Assembly (NCBI GenBank): GCA_041665485.1
Contig: JBAYIT010000001.1
Location: 345,399 to 409,398 of the forward strand
From: Candidatus Shapirobacteria bacterium
GTDB taxonomy: Bacteria > Patescibacteriota > Microgenomatia > UBA12405
Direction of reading: 5' to 3'
DNA: 64,000 bases
Shown: piece by piece, positions 2,771-13,857 of the stretch
Layout: each line of letters starts with the position of its first letter
How positions within the stretch are numbered: the first letter of the stretch is position 1
Position numbers and translations under genes: made by a program
Notes under the pieces: model-generated
Seen by the model: the letters and a program-made list of their open reading frames with translations, nothing else
Databases searched by the model: none
What the model was told of the DNA's origin: nothing

Positions 2771-2794
2771 CGACAATTAACTTTTGATTATTAT

Positions 2795-3241
2795 ATGAAC
2801 AAAAATCTTAAAGAAATACTCTTTCCCAATCTTGGACATGCCTCTGACAATTCAGTGGCAATAGAGAAAATTATGAGAGAAGGTGGGTATGCTAATGAAG
2901 GTGGGTATGCTAATATGGTTAGGGAAATTCGTGGTTCGGCTCAAGGAGTGTTTCTTCGGGCAGAAAGGGTGGGAATTGCAACAGGAGCTCTTATTGGTGG
3001 CCTAGTTTTACCTGCAGTTGCAGTAGCAACTCATAGCTCAGGAAACTTGATTGTGGATGGAATCGCGGGTTTGTGTTTGTCTCTCGTGGTGGGAACTTCT
3101 GGTTTTAAAGCGGGTGGATTTATTGGAGGTGCTATTGGGCAAAGTCAGGCAGATCAAATTATTGAAAAAAGACACAAAGAGATGTTTGGCTTATCATTAG
3201 GAGATCATCTAAACAAACTAAGAAGCAGACAGACAGAATAA
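2795..3241 (+). CDS. hypothetical small membrane protein (glycine-zipper helices)
   Basis: 148-aa ORF. Has GxxxG-rich hydrophobic segments and a 15-bp tandem duplication encoding EGGYANEGGYAN. Preceded by conserved module A. Confidence 0.5.
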   Translation: MNKNLKEILFPNLGHASDNSVAIEKIMREGGYANEGGYANMVREIRGSAQGVFLRAERVGIATGALIGGLVLPAVAVATHSSGNLIVDGIAGLCLSLVVGTSGFKAGGFIGGAIGQSQADQIIEKRHKEMFGLSLGDHLNKLRSRQTE

Positions 3242-3250
3242 AAGAATAAT

Positions 3251-3682
3251 ATGGATGAGGTAAATGCAAAAATAACCAACAAGATTGCGAGTTATCAGAC
3301 AGCGGTTCTTAATCCTCTTTTTGCTGTTATGGATGTTTCCAATGAAGCGAAACAACACTTACTTGAGACTATATCGATGACTATTTTGGGTGACTTTTTT
3401 GTAACTATTGTTGAGGCTATTGCCGACAAAGAAAAACAGCAAAGAGCAGTAGCGATCATTAATAATGATGAATCTAAACCTGAAGATAAATTACAAGCAT
3501 TTTCAAAAATTGTACAAGAGGATAGAGAGTTGCAGAAAGTTGGGGAAAATTTTCTTGATACTAAACTACCTCAATATATAAATGATACCGTTTCGGCCTA
3601 TCTTGCCGTAGCTACTAAAGAACAGAAGGAGGCATATTTTGCCCTCGTGCAGAAAGTAGTTGACTCGACTGGTCAGGAATAG
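3251..3682 (+). CDS. hypothetical protein
   Basis: 143-aa ORF, tightly spaced after 2795 ORF. No recognisable motifs. Confidence 0.45.
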   Translation: MDEVNAKITNKIASYQTAVLNPLFAVMDVSNEAKQHLLETISMTILGDFFVTIVEAIADKEKQQRAVAIINNDESKPEDKLQAFSKIVQEDRELQKVGENFLDTKLPQYINDTVSAYLAVATKEQKEAYFALVQKVVDSTGQE

Positions 3683-3747
3683 ACAAGGATTAGTCAGGAT
3701 AGGGTGAATTGAGGTCAAGATTGAGGAAATGTTATGGGATAGGATAA
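3671..3747 (+). promoter_or_regulatory. conserved upstream module B (3 x GTCAGGA at 21-bp phase + promoter-like spacing)
   Basis: gtcag at 3672, 3693 and gtcaag at 3714. TTGAGG-N17-TTATGG follows. Upstream of ORF 3788. Confidence 0.55.
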
Positions 3748-3787
3748 GTGTGATTTCTTTTAGTTAAAAATTTTAGAATTAAAAAAT

Positions 3788-4831
3788 ATGTCAAGTGTAA
3801 ATTTTGCGCCTGATTACAAAAGTTTATTTCCGCAAACTAATGTCCCCAAAACTGATTTGAGTGAAGATGTCTCTTTTGATGCCACGACTTTAATCGGTGG
3901 GTACAATGCTTTAAATGTCGCTCGCGAGCTGGATCGATATTATGACTACGGATTAGACAGAACGGCGACTAGTGTAGTTGGTTCTAATATGAGTGTGTGG
4001 GCGGATAAAGATGAAAGATTGTGGGGGAAAGAAGGCAATGTTTTGTTTTCTATTGGAGCTGGGCAACTGGATTCAGTTTTGATGTGCAACGTGGCTGATG
4101 CTAAGGGTACTAATATAGGGAGAGGGGTGAGACTAGCCGATCCGACGTTGTCGATGAGTGTTGTTGAGGTGGATGGAAAACTTGTATTTGTCAAAGAAGA
4201 TCCTCGGGGCGATCGGACTACTGCCGGCGTTGATGAATTGGATTTGCCTGCGTTGCAGGCACTTAATGTTTCATTGAATAAATCGGGTTACGGGAGAGAG
4301 GGGGCATTTAGATTATTAGCTGAAGGACTCAAATTATCGCAGGTTGGTGGTGGGGTGGCAGAAAGATTAAGAGAAACTAAGACATTAGACATAATGGTGA
4401 AGACAGCTCTGGAGGTCGAGACAACCATGACTCGTTGTAGTGCAATAGAGGCAGTAAAAAAAATGGTTGCTTATCGCCCACCGGCAAATGCACCAGAGGG
4501 TGTTATTGGACAGTTGGGTAGTCGTTATGATACTGTTGCCAATAATCCAGGTGAAGTCATTTTGGCTTTATGGTTGTTAGATAATAACCCCAAAGCTTTT
4601 GTAGAGAGTGGTGGTATGGATTTTGCCTATATCTTGGTAGAAAAGGTTGGCGAGTGTATTGACGCTTTAATGGAAAACAAAGAGGAGGGTGATGGGTTTA
4701 TTTCTGAGGCTATAAAGAACGGGGATATGTATAAATATTTTTTAGGTGGTGGGGATAGTGCTATGGCTAAACTTGGGGATCTTAAGGCGAAGATCGATGC
4801 GATGAATCCACTAAAAAATATAGCATTTTAA
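3788..4831 (+). CDS. hypothetical protein
   Basis: 347-aa ORF preceded by module B. No family recognised. Confidence 0.5.
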   Translation: MSSVNFAPDYKSLFPQTNVPKTDLSEDVSFDATTLIGGYNALNVARELDRYYDYGLDRTATSVVGSNMSVWADKDERLWGKEGNVLFSIGAGQLDSVLMCNVADAKGTNIGRGVRLADPTLSMSVVEVDGKLVFVKEDPRGDRTTAGVDELDLPALQALNVSLNKSGYGREGAFRLLAEGLKLSQVGGGVAERLRETKTLDIMVKTALEVETTMTRCSAIEAVKKMVAYRPPANAPEGVIGQLGSRYDTVANNPGEVILALWLLDNNPKAFVESGGMDFAYILVEKVGECIDALMENKEEGDGFISEAIKNGDMYKYFLGGGDSAMAKLGDLKAKIDAMNPLKNIAF

Positions 4832-4891
4832 AAAATGTCTTAGGTCTTAGGTTTGGGTTTAGTTTAGAGAGGCTGTGGTATAAATTTAATT

Positions 4892-5194
4892 ATGACCTTC
4901 GACCCGATTGAATTTTTGAAACTAGATAATTTGGAGCCGGAGGAGAAAGATAAAATTAGGCCAAAATTGTTTGAGCACATGGCTTGGTTTTTGATAAATC
5001 GATTCCTTGAAGGTTTTGATGAAAACAAACTGGAGAGTTTTGAGGCAGGGCTGGGGGGTAAAAATGGGGAAGAGATATTGGAGTTAATTAAGAGTTATGA
5101 TGCTGATTTTGAAGAAAAGAAGGTTGATTGGCTGGGAGAATACCGAGCGAATTTTGATTTAAGCAAACTTTACGAGGGGATAAAACATGAATGA
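4892..5194 (+). CDS. hypothetical protein
   Basis: 100-aa acidic ORF. Overlaps the start of the next gene by 8 nt. Confidence 0.4.
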   Translation: MTFDPIEFLKLDNLEPEEKDKIRPKLFEHMAWFLINRFLEGFDENKLESFEAGLGGKNGEEILELIKSYDADFEEKKVDWLGEYRANFDLSKLYEGIKHE

Positions 5195-6686
5195 TCGGGG
5201 ATTGACAGCGGAAAAACCAAAAGGGAAAGATGCCTTGAGTAGTTTGAAATTACGGGTGGCGACAGCAGTAATGGTTGGTTTGGTGGCGGTGACGGGAATC
5301 GGGGCAACAAATACTGGTGGTTTAGATGTGTTGCGGGCGTTGGTGACACCGCAAAAAATAGAGGCAAAGGCTCCGGATGGTGTTGGTCGGACGTTGGTAA
5401 CAGAAAATAGTGGACCATGGGGTTTTGATCGGGTATATAGTGATGGAACTAAGGAAGGTGGGAGAGTTGAGGGTGGACATGAAATGCCAGAACTGATGGT
5501 AGAGGCAACAGAATTAACAGAGGAAGACAGGATGGAACAAGTGGCTGATAATGTGACTAGTATTTTGGGAGTGAATTTGTATTTAGTGGATGGGGTGCCA
5601 GTTGGCTATAGGCAGGTTGATGGGACAATCATTAAACTCAGTCAAGCGGAGATAAATGAAATAAGAACAAAAAGGGAGACGGCGATGGCTTCGGGCAATT
5701 CTACTTTGGCGTTAACTATTCGTACTGGGCCGGAGTTGGTGAACGATGGGCGAGAACGGCCGGAAATTAGACAGTGGCCAGGAGATGTAGTAAGTGATCA
5801 GGAGTTGGTGGCCAAAAAAGTAAAGATCGTAACCCCAGACGGAATGGAACTAAAACTCAAAGATTCTGCTTTTGGCCCGGGAGGTTTTTTGGAGAGATTG
5901 GTAGAGGGAAGGTTGGGTAAAAGTTTACATATTGTTGTTTTGCCGAATACAATGATGGAGATACCTGAAGATTCAAAGTATGACTTGTATCGGGGGCTGG
6001 TGGATAGTCGAGCCGGGGAGGTTAAAGCCTATCGGGATAAAGAGAGCCAGAGATTGGCAGAGGTTATTAAGCAGGGTGGACAGGCAAAATTATGGGCGGA
6101 AATTGAGTTGGCGACGATAAAGCAATTATCAAATGCGGAACTATTGAACTGGATGGTGAACAATGGAGTAGCAGAGAAACAATCTGAGCCGGCGGGAATG
6201 TTTTTGTCGCCTGGGGCAGTGAGGGCTAGGAATCCAAATTCGCCATTAGTAAAAGAGGGAGCAATAGTAGTATTTGTGGGTTGGAATGCTGATGGTGACA
6301 AGGGAATGGTGGTGCCGTTGGTGTGTGGTTCTAGTGGGGAATTTTGGGCCGAATATGGGGGTGGGATTGTTTCCAGTGGAAGTAGAACTGGAGTTTTTGA
6401 TGGTGCTACCAATTTACCAAGAGAACACAAGACTGATCCAGCACGGGCCCCGTATCAGATTGCAGAGACAACGGGTGATGTCATTGTGGCTCATGAAATG
6501 GATCATTTGAAAAAGTGGGCTGATGGAGACCCTAAAAAACCTCACACGGACGAGGGTTTGGTAGACCAAGGGGTGATTGATTATCATGAAGATGCCGGAA
6601 AAACTTTTGATGAATCTGATGGTGTAGATATGTCTAAGTATCAGTTCGCGGTTAGATTGCCAAATAATCGGGTCGTGGTTTTTTGA
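5187..6686 (+). CDS. hypothetical membrane-anchored protein with HExxH motif (possible metallopeptidase)
   Basis: N-terminal hydrophobic segment VATAVMVGLVAVTGIGA. C-terminal VAHEMDHL carries an HExxH motif. No further family assignment possible. Confidence 0.45.
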   Translation: MNDRGLTAEKPKGKDALSSLKLRVATAVMVGLVAVTGIGATNTGGLDVLRALVTPQKIEAKAPDGVGRTLVTENSGPWGFDRVYSDGTKEGGRVEGGHEMPELMVEATELTEEDRMEQVADNVTSILGVNLYLVDGVPVGYRQVDGTIIKLSQAEINEIRTKRETAMASGNSTLALTIRTGPELVNDGRERPEIRQWPGDVVSDQELVAKKVKIVTPDGMELKLKDSAFGPGGFLERLVEGRLGKSLHIVVLPNTMMEIPEDSKYDLYRGLVDSRAGEVKAYRDKESQRLAEVIKQGGQAKLWAEIELATIKQLSNAELLNWMVNNGVAEKQSEPAGMFLSPGAVRARNPNSPLVKEGAIVVFVGWNADGDKGMVVPLVCGSSGEFWAEYGGGIVSSGSRTGVFDGATNLPREHKTDPARAPYQIAETTGDVIVAHEMDHLKKWADGDPKKPHTDEGLVDQGVIDYHEDAGKTFDESDGVDMSKYQFAVRLPNNRVVVF

Positions 6687-6705
6687 TTTAGAGTAAAATG
6701 GGTGA

Positions 6706-8043
6706 ATGGGGAAAGATGATGGCGCTGATAATCCAAAACTGATAGTGGATTTTGGATTGGAGAGGAGGCAATTGACAGATGGGCCGTTGAAGAGATTGAA
6801 TAGAGTGTTAAAAATGCCGTTCAATGGGGCGGTTATAGATCTGTTTGGGGATAATGTAGCCTTGGGTGGAGGCATGGCGACGATGATTTTGGCTGACAGA
6901 CTTGATGGTGAAAGAGTTGGTTTAGGGTGGGTGGGAGAGGATATGTCGCCAATAGCGGGAGCTGTTGGTGATTGTGATTGGTTGGTAAAAAGAGATGATT
7001 GGGACGTGGAGAGAATTGTCGCCGATTTGAACGAGAGTAATAATGGTCGATTTGTGGCGATGGCAGTGGGAGTTGGGGGTGAATACTCGAGGGTGGATAT
7101 TGAGGCTAATGGAGTAATTGTGGCGTCGGTAAGAAATATTGCTTTGGTGGCGGAATATGAAAGAAAGTTAAGAGAATCTTTAGGGGAAGAGGTGGAAGAA
7201 GTGCCTGATTGGGTTTTGGATCTGGCGGGAGCTCCTTTTAAAAATTGGGCGACGATTGAGAAGAGCGGGGAAGGGTGGGAGGTGTTGGGATTCAAAAGAG
7301 ATGGTGGTTTAAATCTGGAAAGAAACGAGTTTTCGACAACTAATGTTGTGAATTTTGAAAAATTATTGCGTGCTGGAAAGCCGGAGGCTTATTTGGTGGC
7401 GGGTGATTTTTTGGCGATGATGGGGAGATTGTTCACATTGAAGTGTTATGGGGCAGGTTTTGGAGATCGGGCTGAAGACATGCAGAAGATAATGGCTGAA
7501 TTTGGACAATTTTTCCAACTGGCGGAAGGATTTAAAAAAAAGCAATACAACTCATCTAGATCAAGATTGGCGGAAAGGATGGCATTGGGTTTGGCTTTTG
7601 ATGTCGATGCTGGCAGGCAAATGCTGATTAAAACTGGCTTAATGGCTGTATTTTCAGAAAAATTGGCGGGAAAAATTAGTGAACTTAGTAACCTCGAGAA
7701 TCAAGCAAAGTTTTCTAATGCATTCGATCTAGTAAATTATTTTGACAATGGATTGAAGATAAGAGATATAGGAAGATTGTTGGTAGTGTTGGGAATAGGT
7801 TGTGGTTTAAACCGAGAAGAATATCTTGAAGTAATGGAGGAAATGAGACAATATTGGAACCCGAGGCCGATTGATAAAGTGGCAAAATGGGGTGGCCGAG
7901 GTGGGTTTGACGTGAGCTTGAGAGAGAGAGGTTTTAGTGAAGTGTTTGATGATGAACAGGTAAGAAGTTGGCAAAGATTGGAAACCAGAAAACCCGAAGA
8001 GACGGAGAAGTTGGTTGGATGGTTGGTTGATGTAGTAAAATGA
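6706..8043 (+). CDS. hypothetical protein
   Basis: 445-aa ORF. Its stop overlaps the start of the next gene (ATGA at 8040-8043). Confidence 0.5.
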   Translation: MGKDDGADNPKLIVDFGLERRQLTDGPLKRLNRVLKMPFNGAVIDLFGDNVALGGGMATMILADRLDGERVGLGWVGEDMSPIAGAVGDCDWLVKRDDWDVERIVADLNESNNGRFVAMAVGVGGEYSRVDIEANGVIVASVRNIALVAEYERKLRESLGEEVEEVPDWVLDLAGAPFKNWATIEKSGEGWEVLGFKRDGGLNLERNEFSTTNVVNFEKLLRAGKPEAYLVAGDFLAMMGRLFTLKCYGAGFGDRAEDMQKIMAEFGQFFQLAEGFKKKQYNSSRSRLAERMALGLAFDVDAGRQMLIKTGLMAVFSEKLAGKISELSNLENQAKFSNAFDLVNYFDNGLKIRDIGRLLVVLGIGCGLNREEYLEVMEEMRQYWNPRPIDKVAKWGGRGGFDVSLRERGFSEVFDDEQVRSWQRLETRKPEETEKLVGWLVDVVK

Positions 8044-9233
8044 ATGATCTTATGAGTACTTTTGGACCAATATTAACTAAAGAAAGTTATCGGGTGGTGG
8101 CCGAAGTGGTGGAAAAGGTGATTGACGGGAGTAAATTAGAGGTACTTGTGGGATTACCGTATTCGGGGCGGTCCTTGATTTTGCGGCAAATGATGTACAA
8201 CCCGGAATTTTATAGTGAAGAATTTAAAAAGAAGGTAGAGAAAATAGTTGGAGTAGTGTTTGATATTCCCTCGGAGGCTGGTTTGGATGAGGTTTGGCAA
8301 AATAGTCCCTGGGGGAAAAAGATGGGAGGGAATTTTGAGGAGGCGGTTGAAAAAATAGTGAGTAGTGGTAAGCGATTAGTTTTAGCAATTAATTCAATTG
8401 ACACCTTGGGAGATAGTAAGGAAACTAGAAAAAATTGGAAGAAACTAATGGCAATTTATTATCGTCATCAGGCAGGTATTTCTTGGATAATTGGCCAAGG
8501 TTGGGAGGAGGTTGACGATGTGGCTGGTTGGCTTAGAGAAATGGATGGGTATTATCTAACCAATAAAAATTGGTTGCCAATGAGAACTTTAGAGGATATA
8601 AGCTTGTTTTTAAAAAATAGTAATAGTCAAAAACCAGAGACAGGGAAAATTTATGGTTTGAGTGGTGGATATTATTGTTTGGCAGAAAGGCTTAGAGAAA
8701 AACCGGAATTAGTTGATGCGCCGGTGGCGGTTAACGACGGAGTTATAGATCATTATTTGGGAATTTTATGGGAAAGTTGTGGCGAGAAAAGTCAACAGCA
8801 ATTATTAGATTTAATGCGGGGAAAGAGTAGTAATTTTAATGATTATTTGGCTAAAACTGGAGTGGTAAAAATAGAAGAGGGAAAGTGGAAATTATTTTCA
8901 CCGTTATTTTACGAGTGGCTAAAAAAGATGGTGGGAAGTAAGAGGCCAGAGATTGAGGAAAAGCTGGAAAAATTGTGGTTGGGAAGTAGTGATTTGAGCG
9001 AGGAGTTGAGTTATCAGGAGTATGAGGTATTGAAATTGCTGTGGCAAAAACAGGGTGAGGTGGTGGTGCGAAATGAGGTGGCCGAAGTGTTGTGGCCAAA
9101 TGATACGGAGGATAAATATTCCGATTGGGCGATTGACCAGGTAATGGCAAAAATTAGAAAAAAGCTTGGAGATGTAGGGGAAAATAGATTGATTAGGACA
9201 ATCAAGGGCAAGGGGATGATGCTAGAAAAATAG
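8040..9233 (+). CDS. P-loop NTPase-like domain fused to C-terminal OmpR/PhoB-type winged-helix DNA-binding domain (putative transcriptional regulator)
   Basis: C-terminus LSYQEYEVLKLLWQKQGEVVVRNEVAEVLWPND..DQVMAKIRKKLGD..LIRTIKGKGMML matches the trans_reg_C consensus (L.E..LL..L....G.V.SR..L...VW......D....I..LRKKL.....I.TVRG.GY). N-terminus has Walker-A-like GLPYSGRS and Walker-B-like LVLAINSID. Confidence 0.6.
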   Translation: MNDLMSTFGPILTKESYRVVAEVVEKVIDGSKLEVLVGLPYSGRSLILRQMMYNPEFYSEEFKKKVEKIVGVVFDIPSEAGLDEVWQNSPWGKKMGGNFEEAVEKIVSSGKRLVLAINSIDTLGDSKETRKNWKKLMAIYYRHQAGISWIIGQGWEEVDDVAGWLREMDGYYLTNKNWLPMRTLEDISLFLKNSNSQKPETGKIYGLSGGYYCLAERLREKPELVDAPVAVNDGVIDHYLGILWESCGEKSQQQLLDLMRGKSSNFNDYLAKTGVVKIEEGKWKLFSPLFYEWLKKMVGSKRPEIEEKLEKLWLGSSDLSEELSYQEYEVLKLLWQKQGEVVVRNEVAEVLWPNDTEDKYSDWAIDQVMAKIRKKLGDVGENRLIRTIKGKGMMLEK

Positions 9234-9310
9234 TCAGAATTGGGCAAAAAATAGTCAGGAAAGAGGCATTTAAGGTCAAGATGTTAATAATGTTATGGGA
9301 TATTATGGGG
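9232..9310 (+). promoter_or_regulatory. conserved upstream module C (3 x GTCAGGA at 21-bp phase + TTAAGG-N17-TTATGG)
   Basis: gtcag at 9233 and 9254, gtcaag at 9275. Immediately downstream of the regulator gene and upstream of ORF 9357. Confidence 0.55.
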
Positions 9311-9356
9311 GCATATGAAAAACATAGATAGAAGGTAATTTTTAAGATTTGCTACT

Positions 9357-9980
9357 TTGGCTGTGGTTGGCGCTGGAGTGGCGGCGTGTGCTCCTAGAGC
9401 CCCGGAAGTAGTTGACCCAAGCTGTTTAATTGAGTGGACTAAAAATGGCGAATGGATAGACGCTAGTAGGAAATTGGACAAGACAGAGTCAGTTTGGCCA
9501 GTAGACGGTTTGGTTGGTGGTGGTTGCCCGTGTACTCTAAGGGCTGGGGTGTTGCACGGAAGAGAGCTTGATGGGGATGAATTAAGGTTATTAGAAAAAA
9601 GTAAATATTATATTAATTTGGCAGATGGAGTAAATGTTGATGATGAAACGTATGAAAGTGGGCCAGATTTTAATGGAATATGGACAGGACAAGATGGTTA
9701 TATAAAGAAGGCGCATTTGATTGCGGTTCGTAAGCTGAACACTGCTACTGGGGAAATGACTTTGAGTGATTATGTCTTGTCTGTGGAAGAAGTGAATGGG
9801 CAAACCGGTGGTGGATATCATCGATTTAGTGTGCCTTTGGGCCGAGAAACAATGGTGATTGCAACCGTGACTGACAGTAATGGAAAAATGGGATTAACAA
9901 GTCGAGACAGATTGGTTGTGTGGAAAAATGGTAATGGAGGGATTGGTTTGTATCGACAGTCTTCGGGGTTTGGGCCCTAG
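9357..9980 (+). CDS. hypothetical protein (possible lipoprotein; start codon uncertain)
   Basis: TTG start. N-terminus AVVGAGVAAC resembles a lipobox but the signal peptide is too short. The in-frame upstream region is closed by a stop at 9336. Confidence 0.35.
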   Translation: MAVVGAGVAACAPRAPEVVDPSCLIEWTKNGEWIDASRKLDKTESVWPVDGLVGGGCPCTLRAGVLHGRELDGDELRLLEKSKYYINLADGVNVDDETYESGPDFNGIWTGQDGYIKKAHLIAVRKLNTATGEMTLSDYVLSVEEVNGQTGGGYHRFSVPLGRETMVIATVTDSNGKMGLTSRDRLVVWKNGNGGIGLYRQSSGFGP

Positions 9981-10010
9981 TGGGGGTGTATTTTGGTGAT
10001 AGAATTAAGT

Positions 10011-10733
10011 ATGAAAAAAATAATTGCAACGGTGGTGATGGTGTTAGCGATTATTTGGATTGTGCCGTTTCGGCTGATTAATTGGGGCAAGATTGCCTGG
10101 GTGCCGGCGGAAACGGTGACAGTGATGGGGGAGGCAAAGACAACGGTTAAAAATCAAATTGCCAGTTTTAATGCCGGGGTGGATGTGTTGAGTAATACCA
10201 AAGAGGAAGCGACTAAAGAAATTAATAGCAAAATGGAGGCGCTGGTGGTGGCGATGAAAGGTTTTGGAATCGGTGAGGCTGATATTAGAACTCAAAGCTT
10301 GAGTTATTACCAACAGGAAGAACCATATTGGGAAAATGGGGTGCAGAGATACAAAAAGGGCCAGTGGCGGGTTAGTAGTTCAATTGAGGTTAAATTGAGG
10401 GAGATTGACAGGGCGTCGGAATTGGCCGGAGTGCTGGCGGGAAGCGGAGCCAACAATGTTTATGGGCCAAATTTCCAGCTGGATGACACGACTGAAGCAG
10501 AGAAAGGGTTGTTTGAAGAGGCAGTTAAAAATGCCAAAGATAAGGCAGAGTTAGTGGCAACGGCTACTGGAAGGAAATTGGGGAAAGTATTAAGTGTGAG
10601 TGAAGGAGGAGCCAGTGGTGGGATTTACCCAGTATATGGAGCTAAAATGGCCGAGGGTGGAGGTGGAGCACCAATGGAGGCTGGAGCCGGGACGGTGTAC
10701 AAATCGGTGACGGTGGTGTTTGAACTCAAGTAG
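10011..10733 (+). CDS. SIMPL-domain (DUF541/BP26-like) protein
   Basis: N-terminal TM segment followed by conserved core resembling SIMPL/BP26 periplasmic proteins (GIGEADIRTQSLSYY ... GANNVYGPNF ... ATGRKLGKVLSV). ATG at 10011 preferred over TTG at 9993. Confidence 0.65.
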   Translation: MKKIIATVVMVLAIIWIVPFRLINWGKIAWVPAETVTVMGEAKTTVKNQIASFNAGVDVLSNTKEEATKEINSKMEALVVAMKGFGIGEADIRTQSLSYYQQEEPYWENGVQRYKKGQWRVSSSIEVKLREIDRASELAGVLAGSGANNVYGPNFQLDDTTEAEKGLFEEAVKNAKDKAELVATATGRKLGKVLSVSEGGASGGIYPVYGAKMAEGGGGAPMEAGAGTVYKSVTVVFELK

Positions 10734-11054: not shown

Positions 11055-11894
11055 ATGACGGAATTTGACAAACAATACCAAGAGGTTTTGAGAGAGATTA
11101 TGGAGAGGGGGATTGAAGAGATTAACGAGCGGACGGGCCACAAAACCAAAATAATAACGGGTGTGAATCTGGTAATAAACAAGGGATTTCCGTTGTTAAC
11201 CTTAAGAAAAATACCGACTCGGATTTTTACGGCTGAACAAATTTGGTTTCAAATGGGGAGCCGACGGCCAGCGGAATTTTTAAATAAATACACCAAAATT
11301 TGGGATGATTTTACCAATATTGATGGGGTGGTGAGCGCGGCCTATGGCTATCGCTGGCGGCACCATTTTGGCCGGGACCAAATGGAAGGGTTAGTAGAAC
11401 TTTTGGAAAAACAGCCAAGTTCGCGGCACGGAGTGGTGATGACTTGGGATGCGGGAGATGATGGGTTAAATTCGAGTTTGGGAAAGAGAAATAAAAAGAA
11501 TGTGCCTTGCCCATTTTGTTTTGTGGTTAATATTGTGGGGGGAAAGTTAAATTTACACAACATTGTTAGAAGTAATGATATGGTGTTGGGGGCGCCAATG
11601 GATGCGGCCGGGTTTGGGTTGTTACAAAATATTTTGGCGGCCAGATTGGGGGTGGAGGTGGGAACATATATTCACACCATATCTCATGCTCATGTTTACG
11701 ATATTCATTACGAAGTGGCTAAAGAACTAATGGGGAGAAAAAATGATCATCCGGAAATAAAACTAGAGCCGAAAAAAAATTGGTATGATCGGTCTAAAGT
11801 AGGTGACGAAACTTTGGTTGATGAAATACTTGGGCAATTTGAAAAACAATATAATCCCGGTGAGCCAATTAAGGGAATTCAGATTGTGCTATGA
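11055..11894 (+). CDS. thyA: thymidylate synthase (ThyA family)
   Basis: GFPLLTLRKIP, IWFQMG, IWDDF and the catalytic-Cys region VPCPFCFVVN (compare PCHAFFQF) align with ThyA. Confidence 0.8.
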   Translation: MTEFDKQYQEVLREIMERGIEEINERTGHKTKIITGVNLVINKGFPLLTLRKIPTRIFTAEQIWFQMGSRRPAEFLNKYTKIWDDFTNIDGVVSAAYGYRWRHHFGRDQMEGLVELLEKQPSSRHGVVMTWDAGDDGLNSSLGKRNKKNVPCPFCFVVNIVGGKLNLHNIVRSNDMVLGAPMDAAGFGLLQNILAARLGVEVGTYIHTISHAHVYDIHYEVAKELMGRKNDHPEIKLEPKKNWYDRSKVGDETLVDEILGQFEKQYNPGEPIKGIQIVL

Positions 11895-12406
11895 AGAAAA
11901 TAATAGTTTGTGCCATGAGCTTGGATGGGAAAATTGCTAAAACATCGGCGGATAATTTGAGTTGGACAGGAAGCGATGACAAAAAATGGTTTGCCGGTGT
12001 GAGCCGGGAGGCGGGAGTAATAATTATGGGCAATAATGCTTTTAAACAAATAAATCGTCCGTTGTCGGGGCGGTTGATTAAAGTGATGGTGTTGCCCGGA
12101 GAGGAGGGCGAGAATATTGAAGGTCAAGTGGAATATACTTCAAAAAAACCAGCAGAAGTAATTGAGGAATTAGAGACGAGAGGTTACAAACAAGTGGTGA
12201 TTGGCGGCGGGGCAATGATAAACACTTTATATTTGGAGGCGAATTTAGTGGATGAAATGTGGCTGTCGGTGATTCCGATGGTGCTGGGGTCAGGAATCGG
12301 GCTGTTTAGAAACGATGTTGATTTGGAAAAGGAGCTAGAACTAATTAGTAGTGAAAAGTTGGGCGAAAAGGGACTGGTTTTGAAATACAAACTACTTTTT
12401 GTATAA
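11891..12406 (+). CDS. dihydrofolate reductase family protein (RibD C-terminal-like)
   Basis: MKKIIVCAMSLDGKIA N-terminus is typical of the RibD_C/DHFR-like fold. Start overlaps the thyA stop (ATGA), suggesting a thyA-folA-like coupling. Confidence 0.6.
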   Translation: MKKIIVCAMSLDGKIAKTSADNLSWTGSDDKKWFAGVSREAGVIIMGNNAFKQINRPLSGRLIKVMVLPGEEGENIEGQVEYTSKKPAEVIEELETRGYKQVVIGGGAMINTLYLEANLVDEMWLSVIPMVLGSGIGLFRNDVDLEKELELISSEKLGEKGLVLKYKLLFV

Positions 12407-12835
12407 GGCAACGGAATCTTCTCGCAAATAGACATTGGCAATTCGAGCTTCAATCATTTTGTTCCAACAGTCTTCACAACACCACCAGTGGCCGTCGAGA
12501 TAGAGATCGGCATTGGTAGTATCAAAACCATTTTGTTTAGCATCGGCAATGGCAGTGACTTCGGCATGGCCGATTTGATGACAAATTTCTCTACATAAGT
12601 GATAGCCCTCACCGGTTTTGAAACCTTGTTGGTCGCGAGGACAAACCTTAACTTTTATACCAGCATTAGTGCCTCGGCCAATAACTTGGCCATCTTTAAC
12701 AATGACAGCACTGGTGGCTTGTTTGCAACAACCACTGTGTTGAAGACCTTCGGAGGCGGTGAACATAAATTGATTATTGGCGGGAACGTAGAGAATAGTC
12801 CGGCCTGGTGGCAAATAGGGGTATTCGATGGTCAT
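12392..12835 (-). CDS. dCMP deaminase (cytidine/deoxycytidylate deaminase family)
   Basis: Zinc-binding HAEVTAI and a second-half PCxxC equivalent (WCCEDC) are typical of deoxycytidylate deaminase. Confidence 0.8.
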   Translation of the reverse strand: MTIEYPYLPPGRTILYVPANNQFMFTASEGLQHSGCCKQATSAVIVKDGQVIGRGTNAGIKVKVCPRDQQGFKTGEGYHLCREICHQIGHAEVTAIADAKQNGFDTTNADLYLDGHWWCCEDCWNKMIEARIANVYLREDSVALYKK

Positions 12836-13197
12836 TTAATATTGATTGCTTTATCGATTGTATTTATCAGGTCAGTGCTTGAAGAGTAGGTAAGAATCTG
12901 TTGGGAAACTGAAGAGACAGAACTCGAAGGTGGAGAGGTAGGTTTATGAAGGCAGATAATGGGTACATTAAGATCGTAAGCCCAGCCAAGCTCGATACCA
13001 AGGCCGGTTGAAGGAAAAGAGACTTCGGCAACTAATAACTGGCAAGTTTTAATGATATCTCGGGAAAATTCGGTGGTTCTAGTTGCGTCATGAGGAAAAA
13101 CAAATTGATGTTGACTTGATAGGTGAGAATTTTTAATGGGAAGGTAAAGTTCATTTTGAAAATCGAAGAGGCGAGAATGAGCGATGTAAATTTTCAT
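12832..13197 (-). CDS. nucleoside 2-deoxyribosyltransferase-like protein
   Basis: MKIYIAHS N-terminus and GLGIELGWAYDLNVPIICL resemble the NDT/Rcl family (KIYLAGP ... G.A.ELG.A.A.GKPV). Sits in the deoxynucleotide cluster. Confidence 0.45.
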   Translation of the reverse strand: MKIYIAHSRLFDFQNELYLPIKNSHLSSQHQFVFPHDATRTTEFSRDIIKTCQLLVAEVSFPSTGLGIELGWAYDLNVPIICLHKPTSPPSSSVSSVSQQILTYSSSTDLINTIDKAINIK

Positions 13198-13221
13198 TTG
13201 AGTTATGTTACTATATTTCCA

Positions 13222-13857
13222 ATGTCAGTGCTAACGAGAAATGAAATTTTGGATTTGTTGAAAAAAGAAAAGTTAAAATTCGCCCCAGAGTTAGATCAAT
13301 TTCAGTTACAAGGGCATTCGATTGACCTGAGGCTTGGCTATTCTTTTATGGTGCCAAGAGTGTGGGAGCTGGTGTCGGAGGGGAGGGTGGCGCTAAATAT
13401 TGACCGCTTTAAAAGTGATAAAAAAAGTTTTGAAATAATTGAGCTTGAAGAGGGGCAGTATTTTGAAATTTTGCCGGGGGAACACGTGATTGTGTCGACT
13501 TTAGAGAAAATTACTTTACCAACAACGGTGATGGGGGTGTTGTACCCCCGGTCGTCGGTGAATCGAAGAGGGTTGTCGCTTGATTTAACAGGAATTGTGG
13601 ATGCTGGTTATGAGGGAACTTTGGTGGTGCCGGTGCGAAATACAACTGGAAGCCAAGTGATTCGGGTGTATCCCGGGGAGAGATTTTGCCAGATTGTGTT
13701 GCATCCGTTGATGTCAGAAGTAAAAATGGAGCAGTCGAGGTGGCACAATCGGGACACGACGGTGGAAGTGTTGCCAGAGAGGAACACCAGTGAAATGGAT
13801 TTATTGGAAAAAGGGGATTTGAGGAAATTAAAACAGGATTTTAAGCTGGAATTTTAA
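13222..13857 (+). CDS. dcd: dCTP deaminase (dUTPase superfamily)
   Basis: SIDLRLG, ILPGEHVIVSTLEKITLP, RSSVNRRGL and GIVDAGYEGTL fit Dcd. ATG at 13222 chosen to avoid overlap with the convergent upstream gene. Confidence 0.8.
   Translation: MSVLTRNEILDLLKKEKLKFAPELDQFQLQGHSIDLRLGYSFMVPRVWELVSEGRVALNIDRFKSDKKSFEIIELEEGQYFEILPGEHVIVSTLEKITLPTTVMGVLYPRSSVNRRGLSLDLTGIVDAGYEGTLVVPVRNTTGSQVIRVYPGERFCQIVLHPLMSEVKMEQSRWHNRDTTVEVLPERNTSEMDLLEKGDLRKLKQDFKLEF

Follow-up and report, generated by a model that had tools for sequence, protein, structure and literature searches.

A phased-repeat promoter module and its candidate AAA+/OmpR-type regulator in a Shapirobacteria gene block

Seven consecutive plus-strand genes (g1 to g7, 2795-9233) lie in a 64-kb stretch of a 411,674-bp metagenomic contig from Candidatus Shapirobacteria, a Microgenomates lineage of the candidate phyla radiation (CPR/Patescibacteria). 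We refer to this whole stretch as the window; a further 21 kb of the contig beyond it was also inspected. To our knowledge, almost nothing is known about the regulation of transcription in these reduced, mostly uncultivated bacteria. The last gene of the block, g7, encodes a predicted regulator in which an AAA+ domain is followed by an OmpR-type winged helix-turn-helix (wHTH), and a module of phased direct repeats precedes g1, g3, and the first gene beyond the block (g8). We think it probable, though well short of certain, that the region is the local regulon of a CPR-specific transcription factor and not a seven-gene machine.

The regulator g7 and its described counterparts

The large forms of the SARP/AfsR class (SARP, Streptomyces antibiotic regulatory protein) combine an OmpR-type wHTH and a BTAD with an NB-ARC/STAND nucleotide-binding oligomerisation domain (NOD) and TPR. 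The OmpR-type SARP activators bind direct repeats at a spacing of 11 or 22 bp; these repeats overlap a weak -35 element, and the 3' repeat lies 8 bp from the -10 (PMC10936776). Judged by analogy, this class from Streptomyces appears to be the closest functional counterpart of g7. Both join an OmpR-family winged helix to a nucleotide-binding oligomerisation domain of the STAND/AAA+ type, and the phasing of the repeats is similar, with a 21-nt period in the module associated with g7 (10-11 nt in relatives) and the third repeat at -35. Nevertheless, g7 falls outside the class because its domain order is reversed (AAA+ N-terminal and wHTH C-terminal, whereas the wHTH is N-terminal in SARPs), because neither BTAD nor TPR was detected in it with Pfam, and because the 3' repeat of its modules is separated from the -10 by 18-19 nt and not by 8 bp. 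The P-loop of g7 is also degenerate, without the Walker A lysine, and the g7 family occurs in CPR/Patescibacteria, whereas the SARP/AfsR proteins are actinobacterial.

The C-terminal effector domain of g7 is clearly homologous to that of PhoB/OmpR regulators, which share with the g7 modules the use of direct-repeat boxes in place of a -35 element. Unlike these regulators, g7 has neither a receiver domain nor a partner histidine kinase, and its N-terminus is an ORC/STAND-like AAA+ domain, so that it is not controlled through phosphorylation of a receiver aspartate. When AAA+ base, lid, and winged helix are considered together, the best structural matches are Orc1/Cdc6, Avs4, and SSO1545, but no sequence-level similarity links g7 to Orc1/Cdc6 or STAND proteins, the Walker A lysine is missing, and the terminal DNA-binding domain is of the OmpR type and not an ORC winged helix.

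An earlier note on this DNA, made without database searches, had described g7 as a P-loop protein with an OmpR-type wHTH. The wHTH is a significant match (Trans_reg_C, PF00486; 48.8 bits against a gathering cutoff of 26.2, E 7.5e-13, residues 322-394), and a profile of the g7 family recovers the effector domains of DrrD (1kgs, 2.2e-11), ArlR, and PhoB (1e-6) from the PDB. An AlphaFold2 (AF2) model built from 13 family sequences has a predicted local distance difference test (pLDDT) value of 87.8. In a Foldseek search of the PDB, its top matches are Orc1/Cdc6, human and yeast ORC subunits, Avs4 (a STAND ATPase of defence), TnsC, and the archaeal ATPase SSO1545 (E 4e-6 to 5e-5 and probability 1.00, with TM scores of only 0.3-0.37), and OmpR-family regulators match its C-terminal domain. 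In this model g7 consists of an ORC/STAND-like AAA+ domain, a helical/winged-helix linker, and an OmpR/PhoB-type wHTH (322-394).

While the wHTH of the earlier description holds up, the P-loop is degenerate. The Walker A equivalent at residue 38 reads GLPYSGRS, which departs from the canonical GxxxxGK[ST] by an arginine in place of the lysine. Relatives have GANS or GISA at this position. P40 and G43 are the sole invariant residues, and where a basic residue is present it is arginine. The Walker B equivalent, VLAINSID (NSID at 118), has nearly invariant N118 and D121 and lacks an adjacent second acidic residue. The most conserved part of the family is the DNA-reading region, KYSDWAIDQ. No Response_reg match was obtained for g7, and NCBIfam response-regulator models cover only their C-terminal 70-80 residues; without a receiver domain, g7 is not a response regulator. 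A literature search returned no paper that mentions this regulator family or DUF5663, a small domain discussed below. The AAA+-wHTH family appears to be CPR-specific and undescribed.

The promoter module in the window and across CPR genomes

A 33-nt core pattern of the module occurs at exactly three sites in the 64 kb, with 0 expected. The motif TRGTCAGRA is found seven times in the window versus 1.4 expected, and six of these occurrences form three pairs exactly 21 nt apart. The module is made of three direct repeats with an exact 21-nt period: R1 (TRGTCAGRA), R2 (TAGTCAGGA), and R3 (AGGTCAAGA). R3 occupies the -35 position, a TAnnAT hexamer begins 19 nt past its end, and a conserved box, TGTTATGGGA, lies between the two. 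The three copies are as follows.

P1, 2693-2768, plus strand, upstream of g1-g2: R1 TGGTCAGAA 2693-2701; R2 TAGTCAGGA 2714-2722; R3 AGGTCAAGA 2735-2743; box TGTTATGGGA 2753-2762; -10-like TAAGAT 2763-2768
P2, 3670-3745, plus strand, upstream of g3-g7: R1 TGGTCAGGA 3670-3678; R2 TAGTCAGGA 3691-3699; R3 AGGTCAAGA 3712-3720; box 3730-3739; -10-like TAGGAT 3740-3745
P3, 9231-9306, plus strand, upstream of g8, its R1 beginning with the g7 stop codon: R1 TAGTCAGAA 9231-9239; R2 TAGTCAGGA 9252-9260; R3 AGGTCAAGA 9273-9281; box 9291-9300; -10-like TATTAT 9301-9306

A conserved upstream module had previously been assigned to the first and fourth genes. The copy at g1 is real, but the others stand before g3 and before the first gene after the block (9357), and the region preceding g4 (4832-4891) has no module. 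Within that 60-nt gap, 4838-4891 contains a tandem GTCTTAG GTCTTAG and TGGTATAAAT, the latter resembling an extended -10, and the TATAAA hexamer stops some 10 nt short of the g4 ATG. The gap could hold an internal, module-independent promoter for g4-g7.

Loci encoding g7 homologues (25-57% identity to g7) were compared with the window. The same module is present in L004, L006 (two copies), L007 (two), L008 (two), L009, L013, and L019, where it stands directly after the regulator stop codon, before an operon, or divergently upstream. Across 13 aligned modules from at least 8 organisms, GTCAG in R2, TCAAG in R3, and T..A..GG.TA are invariant while the spacers vary freely, which argues for a protein-binding footprint and not for an RNA element or a mobile repeat. 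The box has the consensus TGTTAT(G/A)GGA in P1-P3 and also in L004, L006, L008, L019, and L039; it is conserved as strongly as the repeats and is neither a repeat copy nor an extended -10. The distance from R3 to TAnnAT is constant across loci at 18-19 nt. In several of them an ATG follows 7-8 nt past the hexamer (L008 1528, L006 3089, and 9315 in the window), suggesting leaderless transcripts and backing the assignment of the -10.

A scan of a genome collection with the most conserved peptide of the regulator, [ED][KS]YSDWAI, yielded a wider family of 66 loci (L011-L076, about 900 kb) that spans Shapiro-, Dojka-, Woese-, Roizman-, Gottesman-, Levy-, Davies-, Ames-, and Blackburnbacteria, Paceibacterota, and Saccharibacteria. 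These loci are strongly enriched in GTCAGR pairs on a single strand: 19 pairs are 10-11 nt apart where about 0.5 would be expected (15 versus 0.2 at the 11-nt period), and 10 pairs are 20-21 nt apart against an expectation of about 0.3. A third repeat, (G/A)TCAAGC, typically comes after the pair. Among the 24 loci examined for position, 16 have a GTCAGR pair within about 100 nt of a boundary of the regulator open reading frame (ORF), and two more have one at the start of a g6-g7-type operon. The notion that short regulators go with the 11-nt period and long ones with the 21-nt period was rejected, since all family members are about 330-460 aa long. A scan of metagenomes with the three-repeat DNA pattern proved too loose: 118 of 119 matches were 7-mer or 21-mer tandem repeats from unrelated organisms, and the sole real match (L157) is of the same locus type as L009. 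Many small CPR genomes carry two to three copies of the regulator (e.g., LCJH01, JBDRHZ01, JAFGIK01, CAZVJU01, PRDT01), so the AAA+-wHTH family may be among the main transcription-factor families of small-genome CPR organisms. Some family records are labelled Gammaproteobacteria, Clostridia, or Bathyarchaeia, which is probably mislabelling of metagenome-assembled genomes.

Dedicated transcriptional control of the block, already suspected in the earlier note, is supported by the block's own regulator, by the phased-repeat module at three promoters in or beside it, and by the co-occurrence of module and regulator across CPR. In the mechanism we propose, oligomers of g7 would bind R1-R3 with their wHTH domains on one face of the DNA, two turns apart. 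Because R3 sits at -35, 19 nt upstream of TAnnAT, it would substitute for a -35 element, and g7 would be an activator in the style of PhoB and the SARPs. Its targets would be P1 (g1-g2), P2 (g3-g4-g5-g6-g7), and P3 (g8, probably together with the SIMPL gene that follows it); as P2 drives g3 through g7, this arrangement would amount to positive autoregulation. The neighbouring g6 would be the functional partner of g7, most likely a sensor or signal-generating subunit, and the activity of g7 would be set by g6, by a nucleotide ligand bound in the degenerate P-loop, or by both. The remaining genes would be cargo particular to each lineage, inserted behind the promoter module. Activation by an OmpR-type protein from phased direct repeats is a familiar class of mechanism, and what is new is the family with its putative operator code and its conserved partner.

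Several points weigh against this scheme. The binding of g7 to the repeats is argued from guilt by association, and the TGTTATGGGA box, which the scheme does not explain, could be the site of another factor. Since the repeats overlap the -35 region, the geometry makes repression equally possible. With no Walker A lysine, and with a basic residue that varies across the family, nucleotide control of g7 is uncertain. No fold could be assigned to g6, for which an AF2 model from 2 sequences reached a pLDDT of 34 and profile searches were empty. Finally, with 21 kb inspected beyond the window, the regulon may exceed three promoters.

What emerges is a concrete candidate for a CPR regulator-operator pair, consisting of a family of about 400 aa with several copies per genome in many CPR phyla and a DNA code (GTCAGRA, GTCAGRA, TCAAG) with one- or two-turn phasing at a fixed distance from the -10. 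Such a code would allow regulons to be predicted directly from metagenomes, and the pair is open to in vitro experiments without cultivation. The comparison also shows one promoter cassette recurring ahead of genes that turn over rapidly, and flags g6 as a conserved partner that could be assigned to no family.

The g6-g7 pair and competing readings

The genes that lie behind the three modules are listed here with their products.

g1, 2795-3241, plus strand: 148 aa, small Gly-rich membrane protein
g2, 3251-3682, plus strand: 143 aa, acidic
g3, 3788-4831, plus strand: 347 aa, soluble, no known function
g4, 4892-5194, plus strand: 100 aa, acidic
g5, 5187-6686, plus strand: 499 aa, N-terminal transmembrane (TM) anchor and HEMDH
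g6, 6706-8043, plus strand: 445 aa, cytoplasmic, obligate neighbour of the regulator
g7, 8040-9233, plus strand: 397 aa, regulator with AAA+ domain and wHTH
g8, 9315-9980, plus strand: lipoprotein-like ORF behind P3, beyond the block coordinates
g9, 9993-10733, plus strand: membrane-anchored SIMPL/DUF541 protein, E 5.8e-41

In all six distinct related loci compared, g6 lies directly upstream of the g7 homologue. The adjacency is seen in L004-L009 and L013; in L009, where the regulator has 25% identity, the gene upstream of it (566 aa) is a g6 relative by profile-profile comparison (probability 95%, E 3e-8), and the L013 counterpart was assigned by position. The pair g6-g7 is a stable unit, and only g6 always accompanies g7. 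The earlier proposal that the seven genes form one system is not supported by this comparison. In the neighbourhoods checked, g3 recurs in L008 and a g4-g5 pair in L007, g1 and g2 recur nowhere, and the unit that is stable across loci is g6-g7 with a portable promoter cassette; the seven genes are thus not co-inherited.

This bears directly on the idea of a cohesive, undescribed envelope or host-interaction system, in which g1, g5, and g8 would be surface parts and g2, g3, g4, and g6 assembly or chaperone factors. The genes do share one strand, tight or overlapping junctions, and a promoter module; g1 (2 TM), g5 (TM and HExxH), g8 (lipobox-like), and the SIMPL protein (TM) look membrane-associated; and the combination of a g4-like protein with a TM-anchored HExxH protein recurs in L007. 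However, L008 has g3-g6-g7 without g1, g2, g4, and g5, L004 and L005 lack g1-g5 altogether, and the genes at the post-regulator promoter are unrelated in every lineage and mostly soluble. Moreover, of 32 module-driven proteins in relatives, which are likewise mostly soluble, 28 have no Pfam match, and the other four (MraZ, AtpI-like, NUDIX, TAT signal) are unrelated to one another. We regard such a system as unlikely, and the envelope or host-interaction role once suggested for the block, which draws on its membrane-associated members, is weak overall. About equally unlikely, in our view, is that the repeats belong to a lineage-specific promoter read by some other factor, for example an alternative sigma factor or another DNA-binding protein, and that their nearness to g7 reflects inherited synteny. 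The TGTTATGGGA box and TCAAG are as conserved as the GTCAGRA repeats, and an ECF-type sigma gene stands beside the regulator in L009 and L010. Against this, the repeats keep to the boundary of the regulator gene across phylum-level CPR groups (Shapiro-, Dojka-, Woese-, Roizman-, Gottesman-, and Amesbacteria, Paceibacterota), whatever the neighbouring genes and whether the arrangement is divergent or downstream, direct repeats phased by 10-11 or 21 nt are the classic OmpR/PhoB/SARP geometry (PMC10936776), and it is KYSDWAIDQ, the DNA-reading region, that is most conserved in the g7 family.

The nature of g6 is harder to pin down. Word-indexed homology searches, with the single sequence or an alignment, returned only g6 itself and one relative, and an exhaustive HMMER search of 1.84 billion representatives gave a tiny family of 10 members. 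Residues invariant among 11 aligned members include R30, G55, G56, D89, D91, R129, S141, D168, G251, G311, and W384. The family pattern is hYGGxA ... GDxDxxV ... YxRVDI ... SVxDL, with TGS ... PDTDLLL ... PRLDI in L009. In some members E or Q replaces D131, the candidate third carboxylate. The GG...DxD-type signature resembles that of Pol-beta nucleotidyltransferases (NTases); the spacing from the glycines to DxD is 24-33 residues here versus 9-13 in the classic form. No Pfam or PDB profile matches g6, even at E up to 10. We put the chance that g6 is a Pol-beta-like NTase at roughly one in three, as a lead suggested by its motifs. A G[GS]...DxD motif is likewise present in the product of the gene directly beside the regulator in three loci with distant members of the regulator family (L042 8481-9962, minus strand; L054 8080-9717, plus strand; L063 8258-9340, plus strand). 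These proteins were considered as g6 relatives and rejected, as hhalign gave no significant match; the best of them, from L042, aligned GDIDFVV to GDxDxxV at E 0.0055 and a probability of 6.6%.

The same signature recalls AbiE, a type IV toxin-antitoxin system, and g6-g7 might be a toxin-antitoxin or abortive-infection pair of this kind (an NTase toxin with a wHTH autoregulator-antitoxin) in a variable island, the other genes being unrelated cargo. Both are two-gene units that combine a wHTH autoregulator with a protein bearing a GG...DxD signature, here invariant as GG...DxD...R.D; the flanking genes vary among close relatives, and toxin-antitoxin genes (ParE/Phd, PIN, HigB) lie nearby in L004 and L005. 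But none of nine proteins from the region matches PADLOC at E <= 0.01, with one chance-level match at 0.03, g6 has no Pfam AbiEii or NTP_transf match even below threshold, and hhalign of the g6 family with the AbiEii of L069 gives a probability of 0.4%. The regulator carries an AAA+ domain and not the AbiEi C-terminal domain, the gene order is reversed, the operator module drives other genes besides the pair, and the pair keeps a stable chromosomal position beside ribonucleotide reductase (RNR) and Cob_adeno_trans in four loci. Taken together, these differences leave an AbiE-like pair improbable, and we favour the local regulon of g7 with g6 as its partner. A bolder extension of the regulon reading, to which we give little credence, is that g6 is a divergent NTase that makes a nucleotide signal or nucleotidylylates g7, whose degenerate, non-hydrolytic P-loop would be the receptor. 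This would be a second-messenger switch unique to CPR that reads a context of deoxynucleoside triphosphate (dNTP) synthesis and fires portable promoter cassettes with lineage-specific cargo.

Gene calls, cargo genes, and genomic context

The window has an extreme plus-strand GC skew, +0.26 to +0.52 in every 2-kb bin from 1 to 64000 and still +0.28 to +0.35 at 24.8-33 kb, where long genes sit on the minus strand. Values of this size, far beyond those usual in bacteria, give rise to long spurious ORFs on the antisense strand, such as the 293-aa frame at 6414-7295 (minus strand), which has non-coding codon usage, and the coding potential of the genes was checked for this reason. A codon model was trained on the annotated genes of the window, and ORFs were scored in-frame and in shifted frames; the in-frame model wins by 0.21-0.35 nats per codon for g1-g7, g0 (the gene upstream of P1), g8, and g9. 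Seven consecutive plus-strand genes had been reported at 2795-9233, and their listing as ORFs and their coding-like codon usage bear this out. The genes of the block are likewise called in each of three independent assemblies (ENA, JGI, and Logan; source samples ERZ27249449, JGI 3300037810, and SRR6484324), all with an identical regulator, which NCBI lists under Candidatus Shapirobacteria. The two overlaps reported for the block are likewise present, as ATGAATGA at 5187/5194 and ATGA at 8040/8043. Among the block genes only g5 (GAGGGGA) and perhaps g6 have a Shine-Dalgarno sequence; among the gene starts at 2775-9357, those of g1-g4 and g7 have none that is recognisable and have A/T-rich leaders.

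No significant match to g1-g6 was found in Pfam, NCBIfam, PADLOC, or PHROGs. The earlier statement that the block matches no known family apart from local motifs is therefore right for these six genes, and the wHTH of g7 is real, but the glycine-zipper motif assigned to g1 is not a significant match. Hydropathy does reveal two Gly-rich hydrophobic segments in g1 (residues 59-77 and 85-103), in keeping with the small membrane protein once described, whereas PF13488 scores only 11.4 bits (E 0.32), below its gathering threshold of 25. DUF5663 (PF18908, gathering threshold 23.7 bits) matches g2 at 16.4 bits (E 0.014) and g4 at 13.7 bits (E 0.094), both below threshold, and g2 shows no detectable similarity to g4. 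No homologue of g1, g2, or g8 was detectable in any locus searched. In L007, a small helical ORF and a small 2-TM Gly-rich ORF lie behind a divergent module; they were rejected as homologues of g1 and g2 and are an analogy only, because no similarity is detectable.

For g3 the only homologue is in L008 (E 6.5e-44), where it fills the place between a module and the g6-g7 homologues, directly adjoining both. The g4 homologue in L007 (103 aa, E 5e-5) directly precedes a membrane-anchored HExxH protein. A protein of this kind had been predicted in the block and was confirmed in g5, where HEMDH spans residues 436-440 (nt 6492-6506) and the one TM segment is N-terminal (about 22-40). We regard g5, for which neither Pfam nor the PDB profiles gave a match, as a putative membrane-anchored zincin-like peptidase. 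The positional analogue of g5 in L007 has 303 aa, an N-terminal TM anchor, and HEFNHFQGFGH, with a Peptidase_M10 match at E 0.007, below the cutoff; the HExxH regions of the two proteins align only at E 0.56. Going by these sequences, g4 and g5 appear to form a pair, a small DUF5663-like protein followed by an HExxH protein with a membrane anchor, that recurs, being found in both the window and L007. Scans of viral contigs recovered no relatives of g3 or g5, and a prophage origin was dropped for this reason.

The start of g8 is unusual. An ATG at 9315, 8 nt after TATTAT and thus in leaderless-like geometry, opens a frame reading MKNIDRR, followed by an in-frame TAA (9336-9338) and then FLRFATLAVVGAGVAAC; an alternative TTG start at 9357 opens a frame that runs to 9980. 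Read together, they make up a textbook signal peptide of a lipoprotein, interrupted by a stop codon, and the TAA is identical in the three assemblies. The gene may be nonsense-interrupted, may reinitiate at TTG 9357, or may be read through. The gene in this post-regulator promoter slot is unrelated in every lineage (207, 326, 331, 191, and 261 aa), and a SIMPL gene follows it in the window, L007, and L008. In the window, that gene (g9) is possibly part of the transcription unit of g8.

The g6-g7 pair adjoins NrdR, class II RNR, and Cob_adeno_trans in the window, L004, L005, and L007, and lies upstream of SIMPL, DCD, and SHMT in the window and L007, with ThyA, DHFR, and Tmk as well in the window. 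Such a setting among nucleotide genes may simply have been inherited as synteny within Shapirobacteria, or it may hint at a connection with nucleotide metabolism. Between Cob_adeno_trans and P1 lies g0 (1537-2688), which encodes 383 aa with a C-terminal, zinc-ribbon-like CxxC...CxxC end and has no Pfam match and no homologue in the related loci; in L004, L005, and L008 its slot is taken by a different, mutually homologous 292-aa protein. In L009, the distant g7 homologue is followed directly downstream by a convergent gene for an ECF-type sigma factor (12754-13341, minus strand; Sigma70_r2/r4_2) and by one for a 478-aa protein without known function (11316-12752, minus strand), and a protein of the same 478-aa size is encoded in L013.

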